A stretch of DNA of 64,000 nt from Candidatus Omnitrophota bacterium (GTDB lineage Bacteria > Omnitrophota > Gorgyraeia > Pluralincolimonadales > Pluralincolimonadaceae): the NCBI GenBank assembly GCA_003141835.1, contig PLNR01000007.1, positions 3,639-67,638 of the forward strand, in the 5' to 3' direction. Position 1 is the stretch's first letter, and every line of letters starts with the position of its first letter. The notes under the pieces were generated by a model. That model saw nothing but the letters and a program-made list of their open reading frames with translations. It searched no databases and was not told the origin of the DNA. Shown one piece after another: positions 27,101-63,815 of this stretch. Position numbers and translations under genes: made by a program.

Positions 27101-27684
27101 CCTACTACATAAACGGCGCTTTCTCCTTCGTGTATAACCAGTACAAGGGCTTAAGGAATATATCCGTCGGTACTATCCAAAGGACTGCCGACGCCGATTA
27201 CGACGGCCAACAGTATTCTATATTATTAGACGGGGGCTATACCTTCAAGGCCGGCGACCTGCGGATAACCCCGCTGGCGTCATTGCAATATCTCCGCCTG
27301 CACCTCCAGAGCTATACCGAAAGCGGGGCGGATGCGCTTGATCTAAATGTGAAGAGCCAGAATTACGATATGCTCCAGTCGGGTGTGGGCCTGAGGTTAG
27401 AGCGGCCCTTCGAAGTCGAATACGGCATACTTACGCCCGAGGTCCACGCCAAATGGCTCTACGATTTCATAGGTGACAAACAGGAGACGACTTCTACGTT
27501 CTCCGGCGGCGGCGGCTCGTTCGCCACGCAGGGATTCAAACCCGCGCAAAACGCGTTAAATGCCGGGGCGAAGCTTACGTATAACATTAAAGATAACTGG
27601 TCCATCGACGCTAATTATGATTTTGAATATAAAGAAGACTTCGTTGCCCACACAGGTTGGATCGATCTGGGATACAGGTTCTAG
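24172..27684 (+). CDS. type Va autotransporter with PATR (autotransporter-associated beta-strand) repeat passenger and C-terminal beta-barrel
   Basis: Strong RBS (GGGGAGGAGGG) and a signal peptide. It has more than 10 degenerate ~45-50-aa repeats (GAGSTWTN...YVG..GTGTLTISNGGTVS). The ~280-aa C-terminus is an autotransporter beta-domain ending ...GWIDLGYRF. Confidence 0.8.
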   Translation: MSLKKETCVHRKIITLLIVSVIAVFAFIKPAGAATVNVTNTNDSGLGSLRQAITDLNATGADGDIIQFTVAGTITLATGLPLLTHETKFDPNGNDVTLTGKNGGTDAGKWFKVEGASTNTVTFGTGTTWSVAGGLVVGDNAKGSMTISGGGSVTNADKAYVGGGAGSNGAITVNGAGSTWTNAQDIFVGHLGTGTLTISNGGTVSDTYGNIGSNVGGIGTVTVDGAAGATHSTWTNNTGLIVGNTGTGTLNITNGGHVTNVWDSFLGVGAGSSGTVNVDGAGSTWTNTAKMYVGSDRTGILTISSGGSVSDAHGYIGGFAGSDGTVTVKNAGSSWVNVAGGGNDGGLSIGDIGTGTLHIQSGGAVTSDYVDLGINNTGTITVDGAGSTLTSNGDLNVGKAVTGIKTGTLTVTNGGAVSSVHGYIGKDAGSNGNATVSGAGSTWTNTTDLYVGSSGNGDLTISGGGTVTVAGGAGTVTVGNIAGSDGVLFIGNAGAAGTLNATEVTGGLGTATLAFNHTDAAYTFAPLISGSLSVEQDGAGTTAPTAANTYTGVTTLNAGTLGIATISNGGTASNLGAATSAAANLVFAGGTLKYTGADAATDRNFTIAANKAAVIEVTVNTLTMNGASTGVTNGGLTKTGNGTLVLAGASAYTGATAINAGRLAARNANALGNGSAVTVANGATLDVGTTNVTVNNTYTQDAGSTLALTVSGPSSSGKITSDHAAAVSAGSNVNVTVPGSIYIPNNATFTVIDAAAGAGVNAPGTITSSDPRLTFSAISSNGSLILMVNRSATGFSSIATNSNSAAVGAVLDNITNPTADMTTVLNTLEGLSASQAASALDTIVPTMDSGVVTTSTTSLNGFTGVTIERLGELFAQARDAETGVSTGSEGSKGIEAWGRGFGEYVHQSPRGTSNGYFATVWGTAIGGDIPVFDDRVRVGLSGGYARSDINSKDNSGRTDINSYQGTLYGGYIDGNNPYYINGAFSFVYNQYKGLRNISVGTIQRTADADYDGQQYSILLDGGYTFKAGDLRITPLASLQYLRLHLQSYTESGADALDLNVKSQNYDMLQSGVGLRLERPFEVEYGILTPEVHAKWLYDFIGDKQETTSTFSGGGGSFATQGFKPAQNALNAGAKLTYNIKDNWSIDANYDFEYKEDFVAHTGWIDLGYRF
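26270..27684 (+). repeat. autochaperone + beta-barrel-encoding segment; dispersed paralogous copy of 47730-49141
   Basis: The C-terminal ~470 aa of the two autotransporters align colinearly. Long identical runs include LQYLRLHLQSYTE, GADAL.LNVKSQNYDMLQS, LTPEVHA.WLYDFI and TTSTF.GGGGSFATQGF. Confidence 0.6.
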
Positions 27685-34472: not shown

Positions 34473-34502
34473 CCTGCTCGCTACCACCAAAATAGAGCGA
34501 GC

Positions 34503-34593
34503 GGAGAGGTGGCTGAGCGGTTGAAAGCGGCAGTCTTGAAAACTGTTGAGGGTGTTATGCCCTCCCCGAGTTCGAATCTCGGCCTCTCCGCCA
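34503..34593 (+). tRNA. tRNA-Ser (anticodon UGA), long variable arm
   Basis: Acceptor GGAGAGG/CCTCTCC, anticodon loop CTTGAAA, long variable arm, T-arm GTTCGAATC, 3' GCCA. Confidence 0.85.
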
Positions 34594-34624: not shown

Positions 34625-35830
34625 ATGAAAAATCTAAATTGTGCAGGGGTTTTGGTCGCGGGAGTGGTCGTTGCCGCCCTGTTTATCGGCGGATGCGGTC
34701 CCGGCCCGTCCCTTTCGAAGACCCTGGAAACCGGATGGCAGGCGTATAAAAGTGATAAGCCTAATTTTAACGGCGGGCTTGCCATGCAGATACTTTCGCC
34801 TAAGAGAAACTATTTTATATCGACAGGCATGGGCGATGTCACTAACGCCTGCCATTTCCGCATAGCGAGCGTCACCAAAACATTTACCGCCGCCGGGATC
34901 ATGCTGCTTAACCAAAAGGGATTGCTTAACATCAACGATAAGATAACGGATAATATCCCGGGCACGAACATCCCTTATTTGCCCGATGCTGCTGCGTATG
35001 ACGTCCCTTATAAAAAAGATATTACGATCAGGATGCTCCTTATGCACCGCGCCGGCATATTCGATATAACCAATAATGATATACCTGATAATAAGTTCTC
35101 CCGCGGCCGTCCGTATGCAGGCAAGGATTATCTCGGCTATATGCTGGGCATAGACGAAAGGCACACTTTTACATTTGACGAATTAGTCGGTATTGATGCC
35201 AAAAACCAATTATCTTTTTTTGAGCCGGGTTCGGCTTACCACTATTCCGATACGGGATATTCGATGCTCGGCAAGATCATCGAGAGGGTCTCCGGAAAGA
35301 CATATGCCGATTTCGTCAAAGAAGAGCTTTTGGTCCCGAATGGCCTTAATGATACCAGCGTCCCGTGGGAAGGTTCGGACCGGGCATTGCCCAAGCCTTT
35401 TGTAAAAGGGTATGTATGGATTAACAGCGCCGTCAAAGACGTCACCGAATCGAATATGTCGCCGCACGTAGCCGAGGGGAACATAACCTCGACTCCCATC
35501 GACCTCGCCAACTGGGGCAAGAAATTGCTGAAGGGAGAGGCCGGTCTCACAAAAACGACCGTTGAGATGATGAAGGCGGAAACGGGCAGGGGGAGCGCAA
35601 AGGCCTCCAGCTACGGCCTCGGGATTTTTTATATTCCCGGGTTCGGCTACGGCCACAACGGCGCCCATGAAGGATATTTGACATATATGGCCTATAATCC
35701 CAAGACGGATGTCGCGATTGTCATGTTCACTAATGCGTGGGACCTGCACAAGGGCTTGGAATCGATAAAGGCCGAATTGGACGTCATGACAAAGATAGCC
35801 GGCGACGTCATGAAAAAGATAGGCTATTGA
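34625..35830 (+). CDS. lipoprotein, beta-lactamase/transpeptidase-fold serine hydrolase (class C beta-lactamase / esterase family)
   Basis: Lipobox (LFIGGCG) and SxxK motif (ASVTKTF). 401 aa. Flanked on both sides by tRNA-Ser genes. Confidence 0.7.
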   Translation: MKNLNCAGVLVAGVVVAALFIGGCGPGPSLSKTLETGWQAYKSDKPNFNGGLAMQILSPKRNYFISTGMGDVTNACHFRIASVTKTFTAAGIMLLNQKGLLNINDKITDNIPGTNIPYLPDAAAYDVPYKKDITIRMLLMHRAGIFDITNNDIPDNKFSRGRPYAGKDYLGYMLGIDERHTFTFDELVGIDAKNQLSFFEPGSAYHYSDTGYSMLGKIIERVSGKTYADFVKEELLVPNGLNDTSVPWEGSDRALPKPFVKGYVWINSAVKDVTESNMSPHVAEGNITSTPIDLANWGKKLLKGEAGLTKTTVEMMKAETGRGSAKASSYGLGIFYIPGFGYGHNGAHEGYLTYMAYNPKTDVAIVMFTNAWDLHKGLESIKAELDVMTKIAGDVMKKIGY

Positions 35831-35842
35831 AATAGAGCGAGC

Positions 35843-35932
35843 GGAGAGTTGGCAGAGCGGTCGAATGCGGCGGTCTCGAAAACCGTTGTCGACGTAAGTC
35901 GACCGGAGGTTCGAATCCTCCACTCTCCGCCA
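35843..35932 (+). tRNA. tRNA-Ser (anticodon CGA), long variable arm
   Basis: Acceptor GGAGAGT/ACTCTCC, anticodon loop CTCGAAA, 3' GCCA. It shares the 14-nt upstream leader AAATAGAGCGAGC with tRNA-Ser(UGA). Confidence 0.85.
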
Positions 35933-36025
35933 TTTTTTCACGACAAGTGAAAAAATGGCGGATGCTGCAACGAGCGTAGCGAGGCGACAAGCCGAGCAGC
36001 GAGTACGGCGCCGCCCCCAAGATTT

Positions 36026-36068
36026 AACGCAACTTATTGAGGGATCGGTAAGTTGCGTTTGTTTTTAT
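36026..36068 (+). terminator. rho-independent terminator downstream of tRNA-Ser(CGA)
   Basis: 10-bp perfect stem AACGCAACTT/AAGTTGCGTT with a 14-nt loop, followed by TGTTTTTAT. Confidence 0.5.
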
Positions 36069-36116
36069 ATGTAGGCGCTTGCTTCCATTTGCTGTTAGTA
36101 GCGCCTAATAATTTAC

Positions 36117-36145
36117 TTGACAAGAAAGAAGCCGCAATATATAAT
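36117..36145 (+). promoter_or_regulatory. consensus sigma70 promoter (TTGACA-N17-TATAAT) for the DUF134 operon
   Basis: Perfect hexamers at 36117-36122 and 36140-36145 with an exact 17-nt spacer. ATG follows at 36177 with an AGAGGAG RBS. Confidence 0.6.
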
Positions 36146-36159
36146 TGGCATATGCCAAT
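36144..36159. promoter_or_regulatory. 16-bp perfect palindrome ATTGGCATATGCCAAT overlapping -10/TSS (candidate operator)
   Basis: It is exactly self-complementary. It lies at the predicted transcription start of the promoter above. Confidence 0.4.
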
Positions 36160-36176
36160 AACTAAAGAGGAGATAT

Positions 36177-36473
36177 ATGACTAGGCCATGCAGATGCAGG
36201 AAAATAAGATGCAGCCCGGGTACGAATTACTTCAAGCCTCGAGGCATCCCTCTGGATATGTTAGAAGAGGTGAACCTTACTTTGGATGAGTTGGAAGCGG
36301 TAAGGCTCGCGGATATGGAAGGGCTGTACCAGGAAGATGCAGCGAAGAAGATGGATGTCTCCCGGCAGACCTTCGGCAATATCATTAATTTAGCCCATAA
36401 AAAAATAGCGGACGCTCTTTTAAATGCCAAGGCGTTGAAGATCGAAGGCGGAACAGTGAGAAAGGTACGTTAA
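36177..36473 (+). CDS. DUF134 (UPF0251) family predicted DNA-binding protein
   Basis: 98-aa ORF with the family-typical pattern (RPCRCRKI..SPGTNYFKPRGIP...LTLDELEAVRLAD.EGL.QEDAAKKM.VSRQTF). Confidence 0.75.
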   Translation: MTRPCRCRKIRCSPGTNYFKPRGIPLDMLEEVNLTLDELEAVRLADMEGLYQEDAAKKMDVSRQTFGNIINLAHKKIADALLNAKALKIEGGTVRKVR

Positions 36474-37070
36474 ATGGAAGGCTTGACAAAACAGGACCGG
36501 GACAGATTGAAACTGTTCAAGAAATACGGCTATGACATCCCGAAAGCAAGGGGTTTTATCCTCAGGAAGGCCGGGTTAGACAAAGGCAGTATTTTAGAGA
36601 TCGGCACCGGAAGGGGGCATATGGCCATTGCCTTAGCGAAAAAGGGCTTTAGGGTGGTATCAATAGACCTGGATAATGATGCGCAAAAGGCTGCCGGATC
36701 AAATCTCAAGGCTCTCGGGCTTGATAAGCTAGTGACCCTGAAAATAATGGATGCCGGAGTCTTGAAATTTAAAGACAGTTCTTTTGAAAATGCGATCTCG
36801 GTCAATTTTCTTCATCACGCGAAAGCCCCGGTCAAATGCCTTAAAGAGATGGCCAGGGTATCTGGAAATAAGCTGGTAATCGCGGATTTCAACCGGAAGG
36901 GTGAACGGATAGCGGAAAAGATACACGGGATGGAAGGCCATACACATCCGCGCTCTAGATTGTCTCCGGGTTCAATAGCGGCATTATTAAGGAAGTTGGG
37001 CATGAATGTAATTAAACACAATGACAGCTGTCAGTATGTTCTGATAGCAACGAAAGGAGAAACAAAATGA
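36474..37070 (+). CDS. class I SAM-dependent methyltransferase
   Basis: SAM-binding motif I (ILEIGTGRGHMA) and an acidic motif II (VVSIDLD). 198 aa. Confidence 0.7.
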   Translation: MEGLTKQDRDRLKLFKKYGYDIPKARGFILRKAGLDKGSILEIGTGRGHMAIALAKKGFRVVSIDLDNDAQKAAGSNLKALGLDKLVTLKIMDAGVLKFKDSSFENAISVNFLHHAKAPVKCLKEMARVSGNKLVIADFNRKGERIAEKIHGMEGHTHPRSRLSPGSIAALLRKLGMNVIKHNDSCQYVLIATKGETK

Positions 37071-37432
37071 GGATATGCATACCTACGGAAACAAATGAAG
37101 GTAAAACCGCAAAGACGTTCGGTCATTTCGGCAGCGCGCCGTATTTTACCATCGTTGATACGGAGAAAGATACCGTAGAGATCATTGACAATGAAAATCA
37201 GCACCATGCGCACGGTATGTGCCAGCCAATGAATGCTTTAATTGGTAAGAAGATTGACGCAGTGGTTACCGGCGGAATGGGCGGCCGTGTGGTTCAAAAG
37301 CTAAACGAGGGCGGGATCAAGGCTTATCGGGCTATTCAGGGAACAGTCGCAGATATTGTCAGCCAGTTCGCCAAAGGCGGGCTCGAGGAGATAACTGTTC
37401 AGAATGCCTGCGCGCAGCACGGGTGCCATTAA
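37067..37432 (+). CDS. dinitrogenase FeMo-cofactor-binding domain protein (NifX/NafY/NifB-C-terminal-like)
   Basis: 121-aa ORF with FGHFGSAPYFTIVD and GGMGGRVVQKL motifs typical of the Nitro_FeMo-Co family. Confidence 0.75.
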   Translation: MRICIPTETNEGKTAKTFGHFGSAPYFTIVDTEKDTVEIIDNENQHHAHGMCQPMNALIGKKIDAVVTGGMGGRVVQKLNEGGIKAYRAIQGTVADIVSQFAKGGLEEITVQNACAQHGCH

Positions 37433-37623
37433 AGATGAATAAAATTGTCATCATTGATGAGGAAAAATGTATTGGTTGCGGCGCATGCGTTAAATTGTGT
37501 CCGAGGAAAATTTTGTTTATTGACGGCTCAAGTAACAAGTGTGGGGTGAGCGATGAATCAAAATGCGATCGCCGTCGCGGGTGCGAGAAAGTTTGTCCGG
37601 TGGAAGCTATAAAGATTAGCTGA
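37423..37623 (+). CDS. small 4Fe-4S ferredoxin-type protein
   Basis: CIGCGACVKLCP motif plus a second, atypical Cys cluster. The start may instead be the ATG at 37435. Confidence 0.65.
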   Translation: MPLKMNKIVIIDEEKCIGCGACVKLCPRKILFIDGSSNKCGVSDESKCDRRRGCEKVCPVEAIKIS

Positions 37624-37624
37624 C

Positions 37625-37649
37625 AAAACTGTACGATTCCTGTATAGCG
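37625..37649 (+). repeat. intergenic motif AAAACTGTACGATTCCTGTATAGCG (copy A; copy B at 44892-44916)
   Basis: 24 of 25 nt are identical to 44892-44916. Both copies begin a few nt after a stop codon. A truncated relative (AAAACTGTATAG) is at 39574-39585. Confidence 0.5.
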
Positions 37650-37709
37650 AGCAGCTTGTATTAACGTAATTTATTTATTATAATGACGTTGGAAGCGGAG
37701 ATGTTCTGC

Positions 37710-37726
37710 TCCTCCACTCTCCGCCA
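37710..37726 (+). repeat. 17-nt direct repeat of the tRNA-Ser(CGA) 3' end (att-like)
   Basis: TCCTCCACTCTCCGCCA is identical to 35916-35932. Confidence 0.55.
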
Positions 37727-37761
37727 GAGATTCGTTACTATAAAGAGAACCCATTCCTATA

Positions 37762-39507
37762 ATGCAGCCCAATCCACAAAAACCATCCCATAGGCAACTC
37801 ATCTTTAATATATCTGCGGTAATTATCCTCTGTTGCGTGGGCACTATCATCTACTCCAACACCTTCCACAGCCCGTTTCAATTTGACGACACCCCTTCAA
37901 TCGTGGATAATTACGTCATAAGAAATATCTTGAATCTGCAAGCTATCTGGAAATGCTGGGCCAGTCGTTTTATAACTTTTTTTACCTTCGCTCTTAATTA
38001 TCATTTTGACGGGCTTCACGTATTCAGTTACCATCTGGTCAACCTTATCATCCATTTAATTTCAGGCCTAACGGCCTTCTGGCTTATAACCCTTCTTCTC
38101 TCCACGCCGGAGATGAAAAAGGATAAGATCACCAAGCATGCAAACCTGATAGCCTTCCTCGCGGCTTTGATATTCTTAAGCCATCCCATTCAGACCGAGT
38201 CCGTCACATATATATTCCAGAGGTCAAGTTCTCTTGCCGGATTTTTTTATCTATTTTGCCTTTGTATATATACCAAGTCGAGGCAACTGAGAGCAGATGG
38301 CAATCCGTTATCAAGGTGGGGCTTTTTGTATTTATTCTCCTGGTTCTTAGGGATATTCGCCATGTTAACAAAAGAGAATACGTCTACCCTCCCTTTGATG
38401 GTTATCTTATTGGAGATCTATTTTTTTAAGGCGGATAAACCCATAAGATGGAAGTACATCTTTCCACTTTTGATTTTATTGCCGCTTGTGCCTCTATTGT
38501 TGCTCTATACCAGGCCGGTCACCTTTTCCGATGTGCAGACACTGATGAACTCGCCCTTAGACAAAGGGATAAGTTATCTCTTAACCCAGCCCAGAGTCCT
38601 GCTAACCTATATAAGGCTTCTGCTTATTCCCGTTAATCAAAATCTCGATTACGACTACCCTATTACGAAGAGCTTGTTGGAATTGCCCAGCCTATTAAGC
38701 ATTTTAGTCTTAGCTTTTATTCTGATAAGCGCGGTCAAGCTATTTCGCCGGCAACGGCTTATCTCCTTTGGTGTCGCTTGGTTCTTCTTGACCCTTCTGC
38801 CCGAATCGAGCATTATCCCGCTTAATGACGTAATCTTCGAGCACAGGCTATACTTGCCGCTTTTTGGTTATAGCCTTTTTCTTGTGAGCATTGCCTATTA
38901 CCTCTTCGGGAAGGAGTTCTTCAAGGTGATGGTTTCAATGCTGCTTGTGATAGTAGCCTGTTATTCGATTTTGGCCTACAACAGGAACCTCGCCTGGAAA
39001 GACGAGCTTACTTTATGGAACGATGCGGTTCTTAAATCCCCCCAAAAAGCAAGACCTTACAACAACCGCGGGCTTGCCTATTTCGATAAAGGCAACCTTG
39101 GCCAGGCCATCTCTGACTACAACAAAGCCATAGGGATTGATCCCAACCATGCTTTGGCCTACATCAACCGTGGCAATGCCTATTCCAACGAAGGCAACCT
39201 TGGCCAGGCCATCTCTGACTACAACAAAGCCATAGAGATCAACCCTAACCTTGCAGAGGCCTACTACAACCGTGGCAATGCCTATTCCAACAAAGGCAAC
39301 CTTGGCCAGGCCATCTCCGACTACAACAAAGCCATAGAGATCAACCCTAACCTTGCTTTGGCCTATAACAACCGCGGGCTTGCCTATTTTAACAAGAAGG
39401 ACTATGATAAAACTTGGAAAGACGTGCATAAAGCCGAAGGACTAGGATACAAGGTTAATCCCCAATTTCTTGCTGAACTAAAGAAGGTCTCAGGAAGAGA
39501 AAAGTAA
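37762..39507 (+). CDS. TMTC/PMT-like polytopic membrane glycosyltransferase-fold protein (DUF1736-type) with C-terminal TPR repeats
   Basis: 581-aa ORF. N-terminal FQFDDTPSIVDNYVIRN motif, many TM helices, and at least 4 C-terminal 34-aa TPRs. Confidence 0.65.
   Translation: MQPNPQKPSHRQLIFNISAVIILCCVGTIIYSNTFHSPFQFDDTPSIVDNYVIRNILNLQAIWKCWASRFITFFTFALNYHFDGLHVFSYHLVNLIIHLISGLTAFWLITLLLSTPEMKKDKITKHANLIAFLAALIFLSHPIQTESVTYIFQRSSSLAGFFYLFCLCIYTKSRQLRADGNPLSRWGFLYLFSWFLGIFAMLTKENTSTLPLMVILLEIYFFKADKPIRWKYIFPLLILLPLVPLLLLYTRPVTFSDVQTLMNSPLDKGISYLLTQPRVLLTYIRLLLIPVNQNLDYDYPITKSLLELPSLLSILVLAFILISAVKLFRRQRLISFGVAWFFLTLLPESSIIPLNDVIFEHRLYLPLFGYSLFLVSIAYYLFGKEFFKVMVSMLLVIVACYSILAYNRNLAWKDELTLWNDAVLKSPQKARPYNNRGLAYFDKGNLGQAISDYNKAIGIDPNHALAYINRGNAYSNEGNLGQAISDYNKAIEINPNLAEAYYNRGNAYSNKGNLGQAISDYNKAIEINPNLALAYNNRGLAYFNKKDYDKTWKDVHKAEGLGYKVNPQFLAELKKVSGREK
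39055..39400 (+). repeat. 3.4 tandem copies of a 102-bp repeat (TPR coding units), copies 2 and 3 near-identical
   Basis: GGCAACCTTGGCCAGGCCATCTC(T/C)GACTACAACAAAGCCATAG recurs at 39091, 39193 and 39295. The minus-strand track ORF here is a repeat artefact. Confidence 0.7.
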
Positions 39508-39591
39508 AATATTCTTGTGCCCAAACAGTGCCCGCCTAAAGCGAAAACGCATCATAATGCATCACAATAGACGAAAACTGTATAGTTGAAA

Positions 39592-39628
39592 AAAGTCTAT
39601 TTGATGGATATTTGGTAGTATAATTAAA
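39592..39628 (+). promoter_or_regulatory. promoter-like conserved element (…TTTGGTAGTATAATTAAA) upstream of DUF1266-TPR gene; paralogous copy at 42303-42338
   Basis: About 30 of 36 nt are identical between the two copies. Each contains a TATAAT hexamer 10-55 nt upstream of the start codon. Confidence 0.4.
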
Positions 39629-39683
39629 CAAATGAATTGCCACCGCCGCTGAGTTCAACGTCGGGCAGTCAAAGAGAGGAACG

Positions 39684-41288
39684 ATGGCTGAAACAGATAC
39701 CAAGATCCAGGGGTTGGCAATTGCCAGTTTGTCGTTGGCGATATTGGCATATATGTCGGCATGGCTCATAATCGGCCTGCTTTTCGCGATCCCGTCGGTC
39801 ATTTGCGGACACCTGGCCTTGGCTCGCGCCAAGGGAGTACAGGGCGCAGCAGCCGGAAAACCCTTGGCGATCATCGGCCTGGTCGTCGGATATATCTCTA
39901 TAGTCTTGAGTATCCTCGTTGCTGCCGCGCTGGCCCTGGCCCTGTTCCTTACCTATCAACATTCACAAGAGGCAGTAGAGTTAGCCAGAAGAGAGGCAAA
40001 AATCACAGCAATTAATGTTTCTTATCTCACACACGACCAGAAGATGTGGATCTGGGCGACCTGCGCTCTGCTTACAGAGTCGAACGGGAAACGCCATGAC
40101 GTATTTGGCGGCGCCGTGCCGACGCCGGAAGAGATTGCGCAAGAAAAGCAATTATTGCGGGAGTGGTGGGACGTGTACGACAGAGAAAGCATGCTGAGTA
40201 CCCTTGATTGGTTGTGGCAAGGGGGCCACAGGGACGATTTTGAGAAACTGAGTTTACGCGTACAGTCGCTTGATCCCGGGAAATTGCAGGCCATGAAAGA
40301 CATGGCAAAAGACAACCCGGAGCTGCTTCACAGGATAACCGTGGTAGAAAAATACTACAAGGACGTTGGGCCAAAGGGTATCTGCGGATGGGACTATTCC
40401 CGGTATGTAGCCCTCTGTGGCTGGGGATATCTCGCCGGCTACTTGAGCGAAAAGGAAGCGTGGCAGCACGCATTACCGGCAGCGCTGATCCTGCAGGCAA
40501 GGTTTGATTCCTGGGATGACCTGGGAAAGAATTACCTGATCGGCCGTGAGTTCTGGTCCCTGGAAGATACCCGGAAGACCGGAGCCCGCTTCCGCCGGTC
40601 ATATATCAGGCTAACCATAGATCCAACCAGCCCCTGGAGAGAGTATCCTTGGAATCTTGATCTTGAAAACCGGAAAATAACAAAGTCCAATCAAATCAAA
40701 AGCACGGCAAACAACCCTAGAAAGCCAGAAGGTCTGGATGATCTCAGCCATAACTATTATGACAAGGACAACTTCGACCGATCCATTTCTGACTGCACTA
40801 AGGCTATAGAAATTAACCCTAAAGATGCAGTCGCCTATATTAACCGTGGTATCGCATACAAAAAGGAAGGCGACTACGATAAGGCGATCTCGGATTACAA
40901 TAGGGCGTTGGAGATCGATCCAATGTATGCCGCCGCTTACTCCAACCTGGGAAGCATCTATTGCGACAAAAAGAAAGAATACGACCGCGCCGTATCATAT
41001 TTTAGTAAGGCGATAGAAATTAATCCTGGTTTCGCCGCCGCGTATTACAACAGGGGAAATGCCTATAAGAATAAAAATAACAATGACCTGGCGATTTCTA
41101 ATTATAATCTGGCAATACAAATAAACCCGAAATACGCCAATGCCTATTACAACCGGGCGCATAGTTATTATAATAAACATGAATACGAAAAAGCGAGGGA
41201 AGATGTTAATAAGGCGGAATCGTTAGGGCAAGTGGCGGATCTCGAATTCCTCGAAGACCTTAAAAAAGCCTCAGGTAGAGATGATTAA
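39684..41288 (+). CDS. membrane-anchored DUF4190/DUF1266-like protein with C-terminal TPR repeats
   Basis: N-terminal TM hairpin, then a GWDYSRYVALCGWGYLAGYLSEKEAW motif (DUF1266-like), then 4 TPRs. The C-terminal tail (...LEFLEDLKKASGRDD) is homologous to the tail of the preceding TPR protein. Confidence 0.55.
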   Translation: MAETDTKIQGLAIASLSLAILAYMSAWLIIGLLFAIPSVICGHLALARAKGVQGAAAGKPLAIIGLVVGYISIVLSILVAAALALALFLTYQHSQEAVELARREAKITAINVSYLTHDQKMWIWATCALLTESNGKRHDVFGGAVPTPEEIAQEKQLLREWWDVYDRESMLSTLDWLWQGGHRDDFEKLSLRVQSLDPGKLQAMKDMAKDNPELLHRITVVEKYYKDVGPKGICGWDYSRYVALCGWGYLAGYLSEKEAWQHALPAALILQARFDSWDDLGKNYLIGREFWSLEDTRKTGARFRRSYIRLTIDPTSPWREYPWNLDLENRKITKSNQIKSTANNPRKPEGLDDLSHNYYDKDNFDRSISDCTKAIEINPKDAVAYINRGIAYKKEGDYDKAISDYNRALEIDPMYAAAYSNLGSIYCDKKKEYDRAVSYFSKAIEINPGFAAAYYNRGNAYKNKNNNDLAISNYNLAIQINPKYANAYYNRAHSYYNKHEYEKAREDVNKAESLGQVADLEFLEDLKKASGRDD

Positions 41289-42276
41289 ACGGATAGCGGC
41301 TGTTTTTTTATTTGTCGCGATAGCAGAGGGTGTATCTTTTGCCGACGTCATACACCTTAAATCCGGCGCTTCAGTCGAATGTATGATCAAGGTAGAAACG
41401 GACGACGCGGTAGTCGTCACGGTAAGCATCGGGGAAATGACGTATCCAAGGGACCTCATTGAATCGGTCTCGAAAGCCGGCGACGAAGAGAATACTAAGT
41501 TAAAAAAGAAATGGGAAGACCAGAAAAAACAGCGCGAGGCCGAGCAGGAACAGCAGAGGAAGCTCGCCGCAGAGCAGGAGAAATCAGCCCCGCCGAAAGC
41601 CCCGGAAAAGAAAGAGACCGCAAAAGAAAAGCCCCAGGAACAAAATCCGCCGGCAGAAAAACCAAAAGAGGAAAAACCCCTTAAATCTGTCGATACTATA
41701 AATTTCTACGATAAGTTTACATACAGATATGCCGTCCGCCTTCCGCCTAACTATAATATGAAGACCAAATATCCCGTCCTCTTCTGTTTTGACCCGGGGG
41801 CGAACGGAGACGATGCCGCCAAAAGATTCGCTTACGCCGCCGATAAACTAAACTGGATCATAGTCGGTTCGTTGGATGCGCACAACGGCCCTTGGCCTCC
41901 CATAAAAAGGGCGCAAGAGGCGATGCTAAAAGACATCCCGAAGCGATTCAGCGTGGATGAGAAACGGTTTTATGCGGCAGGCCTTTCAGGCGGGGCCAGA
42001 ATGTCGTTCTGTATAGCGCGTAACCATCCGGATCAATTCAAGGGCGTGATTGCCTGTGGCGCAGGACTTGATGATGCAAAAGAGGGCGTAATTAGAAATG
42101 TTGCCGTGTATCTTTGTGTCGGTAAGAATGATTCTAATCTGGGGGAGATGCAGGAGCTTTATAAAAAATTAGACATAGCCCATGTAAAAGCTTATAAGAA
42201 TGAATTTGAGGGAGGGCACGAATGGCCTTCTTCGGAGATCATTTCGCAGGCCCTGGACTGGATGACAAAACAGTGA
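41281..42276 (+). CDS. secreted alpha/beta-hydrolase esterase with K/E/P/Q-rich linker
   Basis: Signal peptide, a low-complexity charged region (residues ~70-130) and a GLSGG nucleophile elbow in the C-terminal hydrolase domain. Confidence 0.6.
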   Translation: MIKRIAAVFLFVAIAEGVSFADVIHLKSGASVECMIKVETDDAVVVTVSIGEMTYPRDLIESVSKAGDEENTKLKKKWEDQKKQREAEQEQQRKLAAEQEKSAPPKAPEKKETAKEKPQEQNPPAEKPKEEKPLKSVDTINFYDKFTYRYAVRLPPNYNMKTKYPVLFCFDPGANGDDAAKRFAYAADKLNWIIVGSLDAHNGPWPPIKRAQEAMLKDIPKRFSVDEKRFYAAGLSGGARMSFCIARNHPDQFKGVIACGAGLDDAKEGVIRNVAVYLCVGKNDSNLGEMQELYKKLDIAHVKAYKNEFEGGHEWPSSEIISQALDWMTKQ

Positions 42277-42302
42277 TTTAACACTTGCTACGTTTAGCTG
42301 AA

Positions 42303-42338
42303 AAGTCTATTTAAAGAATATTTGGTGGTATAATTAAA
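42303..42338 (+). promoter_or_regulatory. promoter-like conserved element (…TTTGGTGGTATAATTAAA), paralog of 39592-39628
   Basis: TGGTATAAT extended -10 at 42326-42334. It lies 17 nt upstream of the NHL gene ATG. Confidence 0.4.
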
Positions 42339-42350
42339 GAAAAAGAGAAT

Positions 42351-43496
42351 ATGACTAAAAAGAGATCAGGGGGAGTATGCACCTTATTTATCTTTCTCCT
42401 TGTTATATTCAACCCCACCTCCGGTTTTTCGGAAGAACAATATAATCCTCCGGCACCCGAACTGCAAATTCATCCTTTTTGTAAGCTTGGAACAGGCAGG
42501 GCAGATGCTTCATCACCCGCCATCAATCCGCCCGACGGTTTGGCGTTTACCGAGGACGGATTGTTGCTGGCCACGGATGCGATGAATCACAGAGTACAGA
42601 TTTTCGATCCCTATTCCGGCGAACATCTGGGGTCGATCGGCAATCCCGGTCTTTTTAAGGGTGAAATCGTATGTATTATTGTCTTACCTGACCAGGGATT
42701 GCTGATAAGCGATGAAAAGGCTAATCAGGTTTACCGGTTCAAACGGACCGCGGTTTCACCGGCGGCATTTCAATCAATGTCCCAGCCTCTCTTAAGCGGC
42801 GAAGGGTACAAAAAACTCTGCGGGATGGCGCGTGATTCAAAGGGGCGGATATATGTCGTCGACGGGATTACAGGGCACGTATGCCGGTATCTTCCGGACT
42901 TTAAACCGGACTCCAGTTGGAAATTTCAATCAAGACGTCCGGACAATGGGCTTATCCTCAATAAGGCCGAAGGGATCGCGATCGACGAGTCAAGAGGAAT
43001 GCTGTTTTTATCCAGCGAGTGGGACGGCATGATCCATGCATTTAATCTTGAAACAGGAGAATGGACAGGCAAATCAATCGGCCGGGGGACGGATGCTTTG
43101 ACCGGTAAACCGCTTGGTCAATCAGTGTTTTTCAGGTCTGTAGAAGGGCTTGCCATAATAGATAACTATCTTTTGGCAGTTGATGAGGGCGAAATCTCCA
43201 AATTAAAAAATTGTCACGGGCATCTGTTGGTTTTCGATCTGCGCAGTCCCGTGCTGTATGAAACGGATGCGGAGAAATGCCGGAAGAGAATGGCTGATGG
43301 ATTCTCAGATGGATTAGTAGGATGGTTTGGATCCTACGCGTCGCCTGATTCAGTCGCAATTTTCCCCGGCAGCACGGAACATCCGGAACCGCTGATAGCA
43401 GTTGCGGACCAAGGCTCGTACCTGGTCCAGGTTTATAGGTGGAAAGAAATCCAGGATGCGCTTCAGAAACTTAGAAAAGAAGAATTCCGTGATTAA
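42351..43496 (+). CDS. secreted NHL-repeat beta-propeller protein
   Basis: Signal peptide plus repeated NHL-like units (NHRVQIFD, YVVD, and others). Confidence 0.6.
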   Translation: MTKKRSGGVCTLFIFLLVIFNPTSGFSEEQYNPPAPELQIHPFCKLGTGRADASSPAINPPDGLAFTEDGLLLATDAMNHRVQIFDPYSGEHLGSIGNPGLFKGEIVCIIVLPDQGLLISDEKANQVYRFKRTAVSPAAFQSMSQPLLSGEGYKKLCGMARDSKGRIYVVDGITGHVCRYLPDFKPDSSWKFQSRRPDNGLILNKAEGIAIDESRGMLFLSSEWDGMIHAFNLETGEWTGKSIGRGTDALTGKPLGQSVFFRSVEGLAIIDNYLLAVDEGEISKLKNCHGHLLVFDLRSPVLYETDAEKCRKRMADGFSDGLVGWFGSYASPDSVAIFPGSTEHPEPLIAVADQGSYLVQVYRWKEIQDALQKLRKEEFRD

Positions 43497-44874
43497 ACGA
43501 TTACTGGCTAAATGGTACGGGGATTTTACGCGCGAAGAATTTATCAGAGTCTTGCTGCTAGGGACAGCGTTTGCTTTACTAATCGGTACTTACTGGACAT
43601 TGAGGCCGTTAAAGGACGCGTTATTCAAGGCATTTATAATTGGAGACGGTCTTCATAAAGATGCTTCGCCTCTGGCATGGGCCAAAATACTCTCTGTTTG
43701 CGCGTTGATCCCTTTGGTAATGTTTTATAGCCGTCTTGTGGACCGATTCAAAAGGCAGTCGCTCTTTTATGTGATAGGCGGATTTATGGCATGCGTGTTG
43801 GTTATTTTCAGCTTTTTATTTGTCCATCCGACGCTTGGATTGGCTAACAAGGTAGCTAGTCCGGAACGGTGGATTGGCTGGTTGTGGTATGTCTTTGTCG
43901 AGGCTTATGGTTCGTTGATGGTTGCGCTGTTTTGGGCGTATACTTCGGATTCGATTGACGCCGAATGTGCAAAAAAATCATTCCCGATGATCGTCATGTT
44001 TGGACAAGTGGGAGGGATTTTAGGCCCGCAGTCGACGCATTTACCGGCATTGCTGGGTTTTCGCAGCTGTGCGCCTTTGGTGGCGGCATGCGCTGTCAGC
44101 ACGGTGGTTATAGTGATGATAATTCGCCAGTTTGCCATAAGAGTGGCACGGCAGGCTGTTGCAATACCCGTCAAAGAGGTATGTTTGCCTCGTCCCAAGG
44201 AAGAAGGAGCCGGTTTTATTGAAGGGCTTCGGCTGTTAGTCAAAGACCGCTATTTGCTCGGCATATTCCTAGTCGTGGCTTTTTACGAAGTGGTCGTTAC
44301 AATTTTTGATTTCAATTTCAAGCGGCTCGTGTTTCAAAATGCCGTCGGGCACCAGGCTACGGCATCGTTGCTTGGTAATTACGGCACGGCGGTAAATACG
44401 GTTTCATTCCTATGCCTTGCATTGGGTATCGGTAATGTGCAGCGCCGGCTGGGAATGAAGACAGCCTTGTGCGCAATGCCATTCATAATCGGGATAATGG
44501 TAATAGGTTTCAAATTGGCTCCTTCGCTCGCCCCGCTTTTTTGGATTATGGTGGCCGCCAAGGCGCTCAATTACGCCCTTAACTCGCCCTCCTTAAAACA
44601 ACTCTATATCCCCACTTCGACGGCCGCTAAGTACAAAGCCCAGGCGTGGATCGAAATGTTCGGCGCTCGCAGCGCCAAGGCGGGCGGCTCAGGCATCAAC
44701 ACTTTGCTGAAAGTTTTCCAGACACGGGCCGGCGATGTTGCCGTTGGTTTTGCTTTATATGTTACTTTCGCAAGTTTATTTTCCGGGGTGATCCTTGTAT
44801 GCTGGTTCTTCGTCGCGCTTTTCCTTTCAAGGGAATATGATCGCCGGGTAAATTGCATTAAAGACAGCCGGTAA
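43456..44874 (+). CDS. TLC-family nucleotide (ATP/ADP) translocase-like transporter
   Basis: About 12 TM helices. The N-terminal region aligns by eye with Npt1-type translocases (YWTLRPLKDALF ~ NYTILRDTKDTL; AWAKI...LFYVI; HP; WYVFVEAYGSLMVALFWAY). The start could be ATG 43456 or GTG 43489, overlapping the NHL stop. Confidence 0.6.
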   Translation: MRFRNLEKKNSVIKRLLAKWYGDFTREEFIRVLLLGTAFALLIGTYWTLRPLKDALFKAFIIGDGLHKDASPLAWAKILSVCALIPLVMFYSRLVDRFKRQSLFYVIGGFMACVLVIFSFLFVHPTLGLANKVASPERWIGWLWYVFVEAYGSLMVALFWAYTSDSIDAECAKKSFPMIVMFGQVGGILGPQSTHLPALLGFRSCAPLVAACAVSTVVIVMIIRQFAIRVARQAVAIPVKEVCLPRPKEEGAGFIEGLRLLVKDRYLLGIFLVVAFYEVVVTIFDFNFKRLVFQNAVGHQATASLLGNYGTAVNTVSFLCLALGIGNVQRRLGMKTALCAMPFIIGIMVIGFKLAPSLAPLFWIMVAAKALNYALNSPSLKQLYIPTSTAAKYKAQAWIEMFGARSAKAGGSGINTLLKVFQTRAGDVAVGFALYVTFASLFSGVILVCWFFVALFLSREYDRRVNCIKDSR

Positions 44875-44891
44875 ATGATGCGTCCCATTCA

Positions 44892-44916
44892 AAAACTGTA
44901 CGTTTCCTGTATAGCG
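44892..44916 (+). repeat. intergenic motif AAAACTGTACGTTTCCTGTATAGCG (copy B)
   Basis: See 37625-37649. Confidence 0.5.
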
Positions 44917-44952
44917 CAACCTTTTTGGCTAAGAGAGGTTGCGTTTGTTTTT
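44914..44952 (+). terminator. rho-independent terminator after TLC transporter gene
   Basis: Stem GCGCAACC/GGTTGCGT followed by TTGTTTTTAT. Confidence 0.5.
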
Positions 44953-45022
44953 ATATTGCTTTTACGCTGTTTTAATGGTAAAAAGTACCAAACAACGTAC
45001 ACCCAGTTCAGCGTATATTAAA

Positions 45023-48000
45023 ATGAAAACGGAGGGCGCAGTGAAAAAGATTAACGCATTAATATTTACCGGATTTTTTATATTTATTGCGGCCACTTTA
45101 AACTCGACGACAGTTTTTGCGGCTCCTAAAATTTGGACTGGCAACAATTCATCTGCGTGGTCGGATCCTTTAAACTGGGGTGGCTCAGCCCCCGGCTCCG
45201 GCGATTCATTAACTTTCACGGGAACAAATACGACAAACTCGAATGATTTTACCGGTTATTCTTTTAGCGGCATTACTTTGAGTAGCGCTACCAATTCCTT
45301 TAATCTTGGCGGCAATCCCATAACTCTTACCGGAGATATCGTTGATACCGCCCCTTCGGCTCAAGGTGTTAATTTAAATATTACGCTGGGTAGCCCCGTT
45401 ACCTTCCGAACCACTGTCGGGACATTATTTATAAATACCGGATATACCGTAGATAATAACGGGAAACTGCTTACGGTCGATGCCGGCTATTGGGTTATTT
45501 TTGACTCTAACCTGATCGGAAGCGGCGGATTGACCAAGACCGGTAGTAGTACACTTGCATTAAGGGGGACTAACACCTACAGTGGCGCAACAAGGGTTAG
45601 TGCAGGGCTCTTGGAACTGGACAACGGCTTTGCCATTGGAGATAATTCGGCTGTCACACTGGATAATACAGCAGGGGTCTCGCTAAAACTTAACAATGCC
45701 AACGAGGCCATCGGCTCTCTTGCAGGGGGCGGCACCACCGGAGGCAATGTTGACCTGCAGACATTTACCCTATCAACCGGCGGCGATAACACTTCCACGG
45801 CATATGCCGGAGTAATGAGCGGGACCGGCGGCCTGACCAAAACCGGCAATGGCACCCTTACCCTCACCGGCATCAACACCTACACAGGACTCACAACGGT
45901 AACTGCCGGAGAGTTGGATTTGAACACAGTCGGTACCTCGATTGCCGGTAACCTCACGGTAAGCGGGGGAACCGCGAAGCTCCTCGCGGCAAGCCAAATC
46001 GCGGCTACCAAGAACCTGGTCGTTTCTGGCGGCACGTTCAATATTCAAGGTTTCAATCAAACGCTGGCAGGCGTGCAGATGACAAGCGGCAGCATCAGCG
46101 GATCGGGTGGTATCCTCACAAACAACACGACCGCCTACGATATGCAGTCAGGTGCAGTTTCCGCCATTCTTGCCGGCACGGCTGCTCTGAATAAGACTAC
46201 GGCCGGGACAGTGACCCTCTCAGGCGCCAACACCTACTCAGGCGCGACCACACTGACGGACGGCACACTGAGCGTCGGCGCGGCCGGGAACCTCGGCGCG
46301 GCGGCTTCTAACCTCGTGTTCGATGGCGGTACGCTGCAGATCACCGGTACGGCTTTAACCAGTATCTCGGGCATCGGACACACCGTCATTACCAATGCGG
46401 ACAAGACCGTCGGCCTGGATATCGACAATGCGGCCAACACATTCACATTTGATCGAGTCCTGAACCAGGCGACCGGAGGCCTGGTTAAATCGGGCGCGGG
46501 TACCTTAGTCCTCAATCAAGCCAACACCTACACAGGCGGGACGACTCTTAATGCGGGCAAACTGACCCTTGGCAACAATGAAGCTCTCGGTACGGGAAGA
46601 TTCACCATAAACGGCGGCACGCTCGACGTCACCGGCGTCACCTATCTGAATAATAATAACCCCCAGACCTGGGGCGGCGACTTTACCTTCGCCGGTTCCA
46701 ACATCCTGAATCTCGGCAATGGCGCGGTTACGATGGCAGCTGACCGGAAGATTACGGTCGACGGAAGCTGGATGGTTGTTGCCGGCAAGATCAGCGGCGC
46801 AGGAAAATTGACCAAGGACGGTGCAGGTATGCTTTATTTAACCGGCGCGAACGATTACTCAGGCGGAACGACTCTTAATGCGGGCGCACTGAGACTCGGC
46901 AACAATACTGCTCTCGGTACGGGGATATTCACCATAAACGGCGGCACGCTCGACTCCAACGGCATCACTCTGACTAATAACAATCTTCAAACCTGGGGCG
47001 GAGACTTTGGCTTTACCGGTACCAACGACCTAAATCTCGGCACTGGCGCGGTTACGCTTACCGCTACTCCTACGGTTACAGTGGATGCCAACACGCTGAC
47101 CGAAGGCGGTGCCATTGGCGGGGCGTTTGGCTTGACGAAAGACGGCGCAGGAACCCTTATTTTGACAGGCAACAACGGCTACACAGGCGTGACCGGGATT
47201 GCCAACGGAGTGCTTAACATCCAAAACGCCGGCGCGTTGGGAACCGTCGGTAATGGTACAAATGTCGGCATTGGCGGGGCACTCCAGATCCAGGGCGGTA
47301 TTACTACCCTGGCCGAACCCTTACACATCGCCGGCACAGGTATTTTACTGGATGGAGCATTGCGTAATATCCAAGACAATAACGAATACACCGGAGCTAT
47401 AACGCTCGACGTTAACTCGCGGATCAATTCCGATGCCGGCACATTGACGCTCAGCGGAGGCATAACAGGCGGGGGCAACGCTCTTACGGTAGGCGGCGCA
47501 GGTAACACGACCATCAACAGCGTCATTGGGGGCGCAGCTAGCGCACTAACCAAAGACGGCGCGGGCATCCTTATGCTTTCCGGAGCGAACACCTATACCG
47601 GACTTACTACGATAGGTGGCGGCACTCTTCAGGTCTCCAATGCTAACGCTGTCGGTACCGGAGCCCTTACCAACAACGCCACCTTGAGCGTGGGCACAAC
47701 GGCTCTGTCTGTTCCCGGCATATATACCCAGAACGCCGGTTCAGCTTTAACACTTACCGCCAATTCCACGTCCAACTTCGGTAATATTATCTCTCCCGCT
47801 AATGCCGTAGTGGATGCAGGAAGCACTGTTGCTGTCAACGTCGGCGGTTATATGCCCAATAACGCGACCCTTAAGGTGATCGCCGGCGGAGGAGGAGCCG
47901 GAGTAGCCGTCCCGACGACGATTACATCCAGCAATCCTAAATATACGTTTACGGGTTTGAGCTCAAACGGTAACCTCATTCTTACCGTAAACCGTTCAGC

Positions 48001-49141: not shown

Positions 49142-49292
49142 CCCTAAAAATTTACCTATAAAAAGCAATTTAATTTCCTTGATAAAGCCTGCCTACATGG
49201 TAGAATCACTTCTATAGGTTAAGATATAACTCGGAGTGACATATGTTATTCTTTTTTTCCTCAGGAGTGCCCTTGTGGGCAAAATCACCGAA

Positions 49293-49967: not shown

Positions 49968-50084
49968 GCCCGTCTATTTTCAGTATCCTCGCCATTTCTC
50001 TTCTTCTTCCTTTACTTCTTATCTTTCACAGAGTTATAATGGCCCCAAGACATCGCGATCTTTATTATTTAAAGGAGAATATCG

Positions 50085-51377: not shown

Positions 51378-51461
51378 ATGGACAGTAAAACGGGCTTGAC
51401 AGGAATAAAAGCGCATGATGTAGTTCTATCACTATGAAACTATCAGATGCTAAAACCTGAT

Positions 51462-51500
51462 ATGCTGGGGGGATATGCGCATATTCCCCCAGCATTTTTG
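51462..51500 (+). terminator. 35-nt perfect palindrome (17-bp stem) + T-tract: strong intrinsic terminator
   Basis: ATGCTGGGGGGATATGCGCATATCCCCCCAGCAT followed by TTTT. It lies 85 nt after the GGDEF stop. Confidence 0.7.
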
Positions 51501-51504
51501 TTGT

Positions 51505-51513
51505 GGTATAATT
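51505..51513 (+). promoter_or_regulatory. extended -10 element TGGTATAAT upstream of ACR3 gene
   Basis: TGnTATAAT sits 33 nt before the ATG. It shares GTATAATTAA with elements at 39615 and 42325. Confidence 0.3.
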
Positions 51514-51545
51514 AACACAAAGGCCAACGAGAAAGAAAAGCTATC

Positions 51546-63274: not shown

Positions 63275-63287
63275 TCCTTATTTAAAA

Positions 63288-63755: not shown

Positions 63756-63815
63756 CTTGCGGTCCCGCAGAATATATCCGCGGGATCCGCTGCGCTTCTT
63801 CCAAATAGAGTTTGC

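Follow-up and report, generated by a model that had tools for sequence, protein, structure and literature searches.

The 64-kb stretch of contig PLNR01000007.1 of a Candidatus Omnitrophota bacterium (GCA_003141835.1) analysed here, referred to as the window, carries a tRNA-Ser(CGA) gene followed by a four-gene cassette (DUF134, methyltransferase, NifX-like, and ferredoxin genes), behind which the last 17 nucleotides (nt) of the tRNA gene recur. The initial annotation took the two 17-nt copies for the attachment sites (attL/attR) of an integrative element that had delivered the four genes. That account did not survive comparison with related genomes: the DNA flanking the tRNA is native, the operon is clade-wide, and the distal 17-mer is probably, judging from alignments, the 3′ end of an older conserved module (module A), and not a target duplication from the arrival of the four genes. 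Copies of the module were gathered by a metagenome scan, from the contexts of cassette and GGDEF homologues, and with nhmmer. Loci of relatives bear L numbers; the closest genome, L100 (GCA_028716565.1), has 88% nt identity to the window over core genes on both sides. The central features, in window coordinates, are:

35843 to 35932, plus strand: tRNA-Ser(CGA) (ARAGORN; Rfam tRNA, 57.7 bits), whose last 17 nt (35916–35932) are the proximal repeat.
35933 to 36026, plus strand: native 3′ flank of tRNA-Ser(CGA), a hairpin and then a GC-rich stretch (aligns with L100 5693–5784).
36027 to 36176, plus strand: left end of the block common to L095, with a terminator-like module (T), a consensus promoter, and a palindrome (promoter/terminator scan; homology to L095).
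36177 to 36473, plus strand: DUF134 gene (PF02001, 4e-23).
36474 to 37070, plus strand: class I S-adenosylmethionine (SAM) methyltransferase gene (Pfam).
37067 to 37432, plus strand: NifX-like (NifX/NafY-type) protein gene (PF02579, 3e-22).
About 37435 to 37623, plus strand: small 2x[4Fe-4S] ferredoxin gene (Pfam Fer4).
37625 to 37726, plus strand: module A, about 105 bp, ending in the distal 17-mer at 37710–37726 (nhmmer and alignments; 8 distinct copies, 6 lineages).
37727 to 39507, plus strand: right flank and a tetratricopeptide repeat (TPR) membrane protein gene (37762–39507; Pfam TPR), the gene that module A would drive.

A pattern search locates two exact occurrences of TCCTCCACTCTCCGCCA in the window, each on the plus strand (35916–35932 and 37710–37726), which bears out the exact, same-orientation recurrence of the tRNA 3′ end described in the initial annotation; the count of other copies that it had called for, run on the 64-kb window, returned none at up to two mismatches. 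The proximal copy starts in the T-loop of tRNA-Ser(CGA), and 4 of the 8 bases 5′ of the repeat are also identical between the two copies. A chance repeat is ruled out (expectation 0; 0 matches in 100 shuffles). A displaced tRNA 3′ end in direct orientation, identical at 17/17 positions at 37710–37726, is what a genomic island in a tRNA gene (tDNA) is expected to leave. As an element-specific marker the 17-mer was ruled out, being a common tRNA-Ser 3′ end that is also found in four phage-encoded tRNA-Ser genes. A minus-strand reading as the primer-binding site of a retroelement (TGGCGGAGAG...) was rejected, as neither a reverse transcriptase nor a structure resembling a long terminal repeat (LTR) was present.

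Module A begins with box C, a pair of direct repeats (CTGTAY-N5-CTGTAY, 11 bp apart; 37628–37646) that we take to resemble a Pho box or a site of the OmpR family. A LexA-type palindrome was rejected for box C, which is palindromic in some copies only, the 11-bp-spaced direct repeat being the conserved feature. There follows a promoter of sigma-70-type consensus, with the −35 box TTGTAT (37656–37661), a 17-bp spacer, and the −10 box TATAAT (37679–37684). Across copies the −35 box reads TTGTAT or TTGCTT, with only TTG fixed; seven copies have TATAAT as the −10 box, and L002 has TATAAG. The module closes with a hairpin of 35–40 nt (GCGGAGA, 37695–37701; TCTCCGC, 37718–37724) that begins at about the predicted transcription start and ends in CCA; GGAGA and TCTCC correspond to the 5′ and 3′ strands of a tRNA-Ser acceptor stem, followed by the GCCA end. 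In the module alignment this stem is paired in 94.6% of cells, versus 43–66% for slid controls. Minihelix registers with a full T-stem were tried and rejected (65–68% of cells paired, no better than controls). The cmscan of 30000–58000 (E ≤ 1) gave no Rfam match at 37620–37730, and no ARAGORN gene lies there.

Mean column identity over the module is 79%, and inspection of its ends revealed no GTTRRRY pair. Because the 17-mer is identical at 17/17 positions in four lineages, and about half of the 10 positions immediately left of it differ, the exact identity seen in the window reflects conservation and not a fresh duplication. The copies fall into conflicting groups depending on whether the promoter half or the tRNA-like half is compared, and the module is thus a mosaic. 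The A2 copies of L095/L096 and L094 combine the same promoter part with a core of the tRNA-Ser(GGA) type (type 2): this core, ATCCC(T/A)GCCTCTCCGCCA, matches tRNA-Ser(GGA), has GGAGAG directly 5′ of a shortened T-arm, and is predicted to fold into a GGAGAG.CGGG-loop-CCUG.CUCUCC-GCCA minihelix (z −2.3 to −3.3). Type 1 copies, whose core is of the tRNA-Ser(CGA) type, have 5–7 bp of acceptor pairing in an ambiguous register (z −0.65 for the window copy).

Module A occurs, once or twice per locus, in no fewer than six related Omnitrophota lineages: the window, L095/L096 (A1 and A2), L100, L092, L094 (A1 and A2), and L002. Its left edge is sharp, at AAAACTGTAY just past the upstream gene, in all copies but that of L002, where box C has diverged. 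The genes upstream of it encode ferredoxin (window), NifX (L095), an autotransporter (L100), and a GGDEF-PilZ protein (L095 A2), or are unrelated open reading frames (ORFs; L002, L092, L094). In L095 and L100 the module is the only promoter-like region between the GGDEF gene and, respectively, the NifX and autotransporter genes. The module is independent of the adjacent tRNA: L094 retains TCCTCCACTCTCCGCCA in a module 1.2 kb downstream of a resident tRNA-Ser(CGA) that has the different end CTCACCCCCTCCGCCA, and the L095 cassette with module A1 follows tRNA-Ser(GGA), not tRNA-Ser(CGA), at a distance of about 2.5 kb. An island would have a distal fragment that is specific to its carriers and matches the target tRNA; L094, L095, and L100 show otherwise. 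No recombinase gene was found in the module-bounded units of seven loci.

The left border of the variable DNA does not coincide with the tRNA end either. tRNA-Ser(CGA) and its flank are 87.6% identical to L100 over 186 nt, and the L100 tRNA-Ser(CGA) ends in the same 17-mer. In L100 the order is tRNA-Ser(CGA), the same 94-nt flank, autotransporter gene, module A, GGDEF-PilZ gene, and a PEP-CTERM gene with a tRNA-like relic. Homology to the window stops past the 94-nt flank, which runs into the autotransporter gene in L100 and into the terminator-like module, the cassette promoter, and the cassette in the window. As this flank is common to L100, which lacks the cassette here, the alignments place the border of variable DNA at 36026/36027; the DNA directly after the tRNA (35933–36026), which in an island would be element-derived, aligns with L100 5693–5784. 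The two genomes differ in cargo from 94 nt past the tRNA up to box C, limits other than the two cores; the L100 autotransporter gene is bracketed by 20-nt repeats of the left edge of box C (L100 5812–5822 and 9866–9888), not by cores, and the core of the L100 module has two mismatches to L100's own tRNA. An empty site, with tRNA-Ser(CGA) joined directly to GAGATTCGTTAC, was found in none of the loci examined (the L100 flank runs into the autotransporter gene); this arrangement, the tRNA with the DNA right of the distal repeat directly behind it, is what the initial annotation had proposed to look for in relatives. Its view is upheld insofar as the cassette lies in DNA differing between close relatives: the cassette is absent from this site in L100, where a 76%-identical copy lies on another contig beside FUR/ZnuA/ABC-3/ZIP genes, and a sister lineage carries it behind tRNA-Ser(GGA).

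The flank opens with a hairpin (arms 35926–35941 and 35947–35962) formed by TGGCGGA folding back to pair with the 3′ end of the tRNA (TCCGCCA). This tRNA-trailer hairpin occurs at 35926–35962 in the window, 5686–5722 in L100, and about 5768–5816 in L012. Its inner arms, TTTTTTCAC/GTGAAAAAA in the window versus TCCTTTCCG/CGGAAAGGA in L100, have changed yet remain complementary; such compensatory changes point to a conserved structure.

The gene content of the cassette reported in the initial annotation was borne out by Pfam, as was its own consensus promoter (TTGACA-17-TATAAT at 36117–36145, 12/12 consensus matches). Of the reported terminator, one terminator-like hairpin does exist (36026–36059 plus a T run), but it is the only one and lies upstream of the cassette promoter, the promoter/terminator scan finding none after the ferredoxin gene. 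The terminator-like module T as a whole (36026–36069) recurs at 44914–44958 and at L095 5275–5319. The DUF134 operon has a perfect 16-bp palindrome, ATTGGCATATGCCAAT (36144–36159), between its −10 box and its ribosome-binding site; the palindrome is kept in L095 (about 6385–6400) and partly in L098. It is a probable operator, for which the regulator is perhaps the DUF134 helix-turn-helix protein itself.

The methyltransferase has 318 homologues, of which the best 120 are 195–213 amino acids long and at least 58% identical; the members named by source among these 120 are from Omnitrophota/Omnitrophica. The DUF134–methyltransferase–NifX trio occurs in four other contexts and was seen in L095, L097/L098, and L099 (58–83% orthologues across Omnitrophota). 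By these comparisons, it is a stable, clade-wide Omnitrophota operon. The GC content of the four cassette genes is 0.43–0.50 versus 0.54 for positions 1–34357, and the cassette is thus lower in GC than the core, as first described. Because the operon has about 47–49% GC in every context (0.476, 0.476, and 0.494 elsewhere; 0.46–0.50 for its three genes in the window), this low GC is not a foreign signature. The window and L095 share the cassette plus module A at 83.5% and 88.6% identity, values similar to those of neighbouring genes; the adjacency of cassette and module therefore predates the split between the two. Of the cassette, only the ferredoxin gene is specific to this genome: in the L095, L098, and L099 copies NifX is not followed by a ferredoxin gene, and the L099 gene at that place encodes a CxxCxxCC protein. 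PF02001 and PF02579 matches co-occur with a Fe-S protein in the window, and the recurring DUF134/NifX/ferredoxin neighbourhood of the initial annotation holds for the DUF134–methyltransferase–NifX trio but not for the ferredoxin. In the closest species (L097 2863–8959 and 15996–16597; L098 1–3061) the trio adjoins FUR/ZnuA/ABC-3/ZIP genes, and a second DUF134 gene lies ahead of an ArsP permease gene; this gene context suggests that DUF134 is linked to metal homeostasis.

Further repeats and relics derived from tRNA genes or modules lie on either side of the cassette:

34490 to 34548, plus strand: 13-nt leader and 5′ part of tRNA-Ser(TGA), recurring at 35830–35888 (59 nt, 88%; repeat search).
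44892 to 44958, plus strand: partial second box C (44892–44916, 24/25 identical) fused to a second copy of T, upstream of an autotransporter gene (repeat search).
49976 to 50054, plus strand: decayed tRNA-like relic TTCAGTATCCTCGCCA (49976–49993), then promoter module B, upstream of a GGDEF-PilZ gene (50085–51377).

Relatives of its SerRS assign the window to Candidatus Omnitrophota. These features belong to a tRNA array that commonly has a compact form in this phylum, comprising tRNA-Lys, serS, an M50B-like gene, tRNA-Ser(TGA), tRNA-Ser(CGA), tRNA-Ser(GGA), tRNA-Arg(ACG), and tRNA-Ser(GCT). Gaps in the array are 0.1–1.5 kb in L007, L017, and L023, and the window equivalents are 1.2, 18.7, and 8.4 kb; gap content is unrelated in relatives, and the order of accessory genes in the array differs even between genomes that are 88–93% identical. 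The slot between tRNA-Ser(TGA) and tRNA-Ser(CGA) holds, in the window, a beta-lactamase-like gene bracketed by the 59-nt direct repeats of tRNA 5′ parts; in L100, only 82 nt without a gene and with a different tRNA-Ser(CGA) leader; and in L002, a PEBP gene. Two near-identical tRNA-Ser genes (TGA and CGA) occur in L002, both 93.6% identical to the same window tRNA, and truncated tRNA-Ser copies are found in L012. The tandem array of tRNA-Ser genes behind serS is an accessory slot that changes fast and is prone to recombination, with breakpoints in or at the ends of tRNA-derived sequence (5′ and 3′ parts). In this clade, junctions are indeed marked by copies of tRNA 3′ ends, which supports that part of the initial annotation.

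Accessory DNA of atypical composition fills the whole interval from tRNA-Ser(CGA) to tRNA-Ser(GGA): every tested segment of 1.3–1.5 kb between 36177 and 54545 has a raised tetranucleotide distance from the core, and the distance is normal again at 54.8 kb. The suggestion of a larger atypical region stands for 36177–54545; a single island from the tRNA to the relic (35933–49993), considered because the relic with module B aligns with the tRNA end and flank of L002, is weakened, since the relic accompanies the PEP-CTERM gene in L100 too. The stated lack of an integrase was confirmed. No recombinase or transposase Pfam match was obtained for any ORF at 34.6–56.2 kb or for the large ORFs elsewhere in the window, and an integrase pseudogene would have no room, all intergenic gaps at 35.9–54.6 kb being at most 250 nt. 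No related intact integrative element was found in about 25 loci.

Contigs of relatives from independent assemblies (L082–L087, L101, L102, L106, and L107) end right past the M50B-like gene or begin in a module core or at module B, which suggests population-level heterogeneity or repeats there. M50B-like orthologues were tried as an entry to the array in close relatives and yielded no junctions, as every contig stops right past that gene.

Several other features were noted. Gene-free inserts of about 115–170 nt lie directly past tRNA genes in L030 (12098–12264 and 18108–18296), L051 (8838–9016), and L061 (11905–12036); they are bounded by exact 17–46-nt repeats of tRNA 3′ ends, all four have CCGAC...GGAGG motifs, and none has an Rfam match. 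The two L030 inserts are homologous, with a 10–11-bp stem kept by compensatory changes. Insertion 3′ of GCCA by an IS200/IS605-type (HUH) element, with hairpins at both ends, was considered and rejected: it leaves the 17–46-nt duplications unexplained, nor was a TnpA found. At window 39591–39632 and 42301–42342 and at L095 5393–5434 lies a recurring promoter module (AAAAGTCTATT...TGGTATAAT, with an extended −10 box), which precedes a DUF1266-TPR gene, an NHL-repeat gene, and ORF257 of L095. The variable segment encodes a homologue of TLC-family ATP/ADP translocases (43402–44874; another homologue in L097, 1–641), a transporter of the energy-parasitism type that is noteworthy in an Omnitrophota genome. 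Two autotransporter paralogues with PATR repeats (24172–27684 and 45042–49141) have patches of 83–94% nt identity in their C-terminal barrels; the passenger of the second (45042–49141) has internal repeats of 294–354 nt and differs from that of its L100 orthologue. A tadA-like deaminase gene (63198–63907) lies between tRNA-Arg(ACG), the expected substrate, and tRNA-Ser(GCT), as it does in L007, L017, L023, and L105.

Block order differs between lineages. In the window, the cassette with its ferredoxin gene is followed by module A and the TPR gene and, further on, by the autotransporter gene, a PEP-CTERM gene, the decayed relic, module B, and the GGDEF-PilZ gene. The L096 order is cassette, A1, GGDEF-PilZ gene, A2, and TPR gene; L096 3789–4173 matches window 37620–38004 at 81%, and the L096 module there is type 2. 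The fusion of the second box C (direct repeats at 44895–44913) to T is matched at 89% by L095 5271–5317. From CGCCA onward the window relic with module B aligns with L002 12681–12746, which is a tRNA-Ser(CGA) end with its flank; the relic also follows the PEP-CTERM gene in L100, and module B begins contig L107. The GGDEF-PilZ leader abuts a GCCA end in five lineages, and its left partner varies: a type 1 module (L100 and L095), a different tRNA-like module termed T3 (L105), a genuine tRNA-Ser(GGA) 3′ end (L106), or a decayed remnant (L107). In L107, the native upstream region of tRNA-Ser(GGA) (97%, 34 nt) is followed by a decayed remnant of about 55 nt ending in CCGCTCTCCGCCA, directly before the GGDEF leader. 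T3 is a third CCA-ended tRNA-like module (TTTTATAAGTA...GTAGGGTTCGC...ACCCGCCA), which brackets a small ORF upstream of the GGDEF-PilZ gene (L105 5161–5277 and 5857–5973). L105 is from the L002 genome, and the 100%-identical strain L106 has the genuine tRNA-Ser(GGA) end in place of T3.

We favour, with evenly balanced confidence, the explanation that module A is a regulated promoter with a tRNA-relic 5′ leader. The tRNA-like piece would descend from a duplicated tRNA-Ser gene that has lost its middle, with L107 representing an intermediate state, and the module would have persisted because it supplies the gene on its right (TPR here, GGDEF-PilZ in L100 and L095) with a regulated promoter and a 5′ leader. 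The minihelix may be a 5′ element for stabilisation or processing, for example, a substrate of RNase P or of 3′ tRNA trimming. Homology of the module to neighbouring tRNA-Ser genes would make it a recombination hot spot, and the DUF134 operon would be one among several alternatives filling the slot from the tRNA flank to the module. Co-transcripts of tRNA and mRNA are exemplified by the Escherichia coli thrU-tyrU-glyT-thrT-tufB operon, and acceptor/T-arm minihelices are model substrates of RNase P. As in such co-transcripts, a GCCA-ended acceptor hairpin stands between promoter and protein gene, and in L106 a genuine tRNA-Ser(GGA) end abuts the GGDEF leader; unlike in them, the tRNA is cut to about 35–40 nt and has no decoding role, and its processing is putative.

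Several points weigh against this favoured explanation. The promoter of module A is a consensus match only; changes in the stem amount to conservation and G-U pairs, with no double compensatory change, and L002 has one stem mismatch. Independent decay leaves unexplained why the minihelix parts of types 1 and 2 are equally long. L105 and L106 are 100% identical over 1461 nt right of CCGCCA, and their left partners differ, with about 6 nt in common at the junction; the swap is recent, given this identity, and from the sequences it looks site-specific and awkward for homologous recombination. Layouts of module, gene, and module (L095 A1-GGDEF-A2; L105) resemble att-site accretion. Furthermore, the search for recombinases covered only parts of each genome, and one may be encoded elsewhere.

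The main rival, to which we give distinctly less credence, is an integrase-less cassette system in which the module is a portable attR- or attC-like site that a recombinase acting in trans joins to the GCCA ends of tRNA-Ser genes or modules. Genes and operons ending in a module would then accumulate and swap behind tRNA-Ser, as in the accretion of cis-mobilizable elements (CIMEs) or in a tRNA-anchored, integron-like array. The exchange of right-hand partners at, or inside, the final ~13 nt ahead of CCA in different lineages, the strain-level L105/L106 swap at CCGCCA with 100% identity on one side, modules at the 3′ end of seven different cargoes, and modules flanking single genes in L095, L094, and L105 are all in keeping with such a system; the direct repeats of box C could be arm-type binding sites, and the assemblies of relatives are interrupted at the tRNA-Ser array or within the cores of modules. 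A 17-nt repeat of a tRNA 3′ end is, moreover, a classical island signature (PMC4383910), and CIMEs by definition keep attL and attR without integration genes (PMC5704250). Set against these are the lack of a recombinase in any unit or in the 64-kb window, the L100 cargo difference (which runs from 94 nt past the tRNA to box C, not from core to core), the bracketing of the L100 autotransporter gene by 20-nt repeats of the box C edge instead of cores, the tRNA upstream region in L107, which att duplication does not copy, and the strong conservation of a promoter that would be superfluous for an att site. The fuller proposition, that GCCA-ended mini-tRNA modules are the recombination sites of an undescribed trans-acting cassette system in which each module is also the promoter of the next cassette, we consider unlikely.

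CIMEs are decayed ICEs (integrative and conjugative elements) or IMEs (integrative and mobilizable elements) that need a related integrase from an incoming element (PMC5704250). Like them, the units described here have tRNA-end repeats on both sides, lack integration genes, and occur in tandem, and the L105/L106 swap at CCGCCA is compatible with this parallel; unlike CIMEs, they consist of single genes or operons, with no related intact element in about 25 loci. Integrons have the integrase IntI, the attI site, and the Pc promoter at the head of the array, and their attC sites have GTTRRRY cores and are conserved in structure, not in sequence. The likeness to attC cassettes lies in a short hairpin site 3′ of many unrelated genes, the order of which is shuffled between close relatives. 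The locus differs from integrons in that IntI, attI, and GTTRRRY are missing, the module is conserved in sequence and has its own promoter, and arrays comprise one or two units; no recombinase was found in the window or related loci.

Alternatively, the tRNA-like part may be a functionless pseudogene fragment of a duplicated tRNA-Ser gene, gene-converted and hitch-hiking beside a useful promoter, which we regard as improbable. Tandem duplication of tRNA genes yields tRNA pseudogenes and fragments, and descent from a tRNA-Ser gene of the same array and states of intermediate decay (L107, L012) are found here as well. The decaying tRNA-Ser(GGA) copy at the same position in L107, the truncated tRNA-Ser copies in L012, the near-identical TGA and CGA tRNAs of L002, which show duplication or conversion in the array, and the lack of stem covariation would all fit a pseudogene. 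The module is, however, unlike a neutral fragment, for which conservation of the 3′ 17 nt and the stem across lineages, fixed to a conserved promoter, is unexpected: the 17-mer is intact at 17/17 positions in four lineages beside a half-diverged left 10 nt, L094 keeps it without a matching tRNA in the locus, and types 1 and 2 are equal in length, both with acceptor pairing.

Tyrosine-integrase islands in tRNA and tmRNA genes are catalogued in Islander, with their expected endpoints defined (PMC4383910). The locus is like them in the same-orientation copy of a tRNA 3′ end a few kb downstream, the variable, atypical DNA between, and the serial tRNA fragments; it is unlike them in having no integrase, native DNA past the tRNA, and a fragment that belongs to a conserved promoter module found without the matching tRNA and that takes in the 5′ acceptor strand, a part that would be missing from an att duplication. 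The classical decayed-island reading fails four of its five defining tests. That a tyrosine-integrase element entered the 3′ end of tRNA-Ser(CGA), brought the four genes as an islet at 35933–37726, duplicated 17 nt, and lost its integrase accords with the exact direct repeat of the tRNA 3′ end from the T-loop, the lower GC and own promoter, and the closest genome lacking the cassette at this site, but is very improbable in view of the native 94-nt flank, distal repeats in genomes without the cassette here and beside non-matching tRNAs, a cassette-module adjacency older than the L095 split with the L095 block behind tRNA-Ser(GGA), a clade-wide operon of unchanged composition, and the lack of an integrase or of space for its pseudogene, and is contradicted by L100, L094, and L095.

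Junctions of tRNA-derived sequence are known from variable tDNA loci; what is unusual here is a conserved promoter fused to a mini-tRNA. Repeats of tRNA ends are routinely read as island borders, and in this locus such a repeat is part of a conserved, probably functional module, with the consequence that automatic island callers would mis-delimit the locus. In one relative the DUF134–methyltransferase–NifX trio lies beside FUR/ZnuA/ZIP genes, which offers a clue to what it does. Use of the module in trans as a recombination site, if real, would explain the fast shuffling of accessory genes behind the tRNA-Ser array (the DUF134 operon and genes for autotransporters and for GGDEF-PilZ, ankyrin, and TPR proteins), and a cassette system of this kind would be a tRNA-anchored, self-expressing analogue of integrons in Omnitrophota. 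If the module is instead a tRNA-like 5′ leader, as favoured here, it would be a small, testable case in which an uncultured phylum has put a tRNA relic to use in gene expression.

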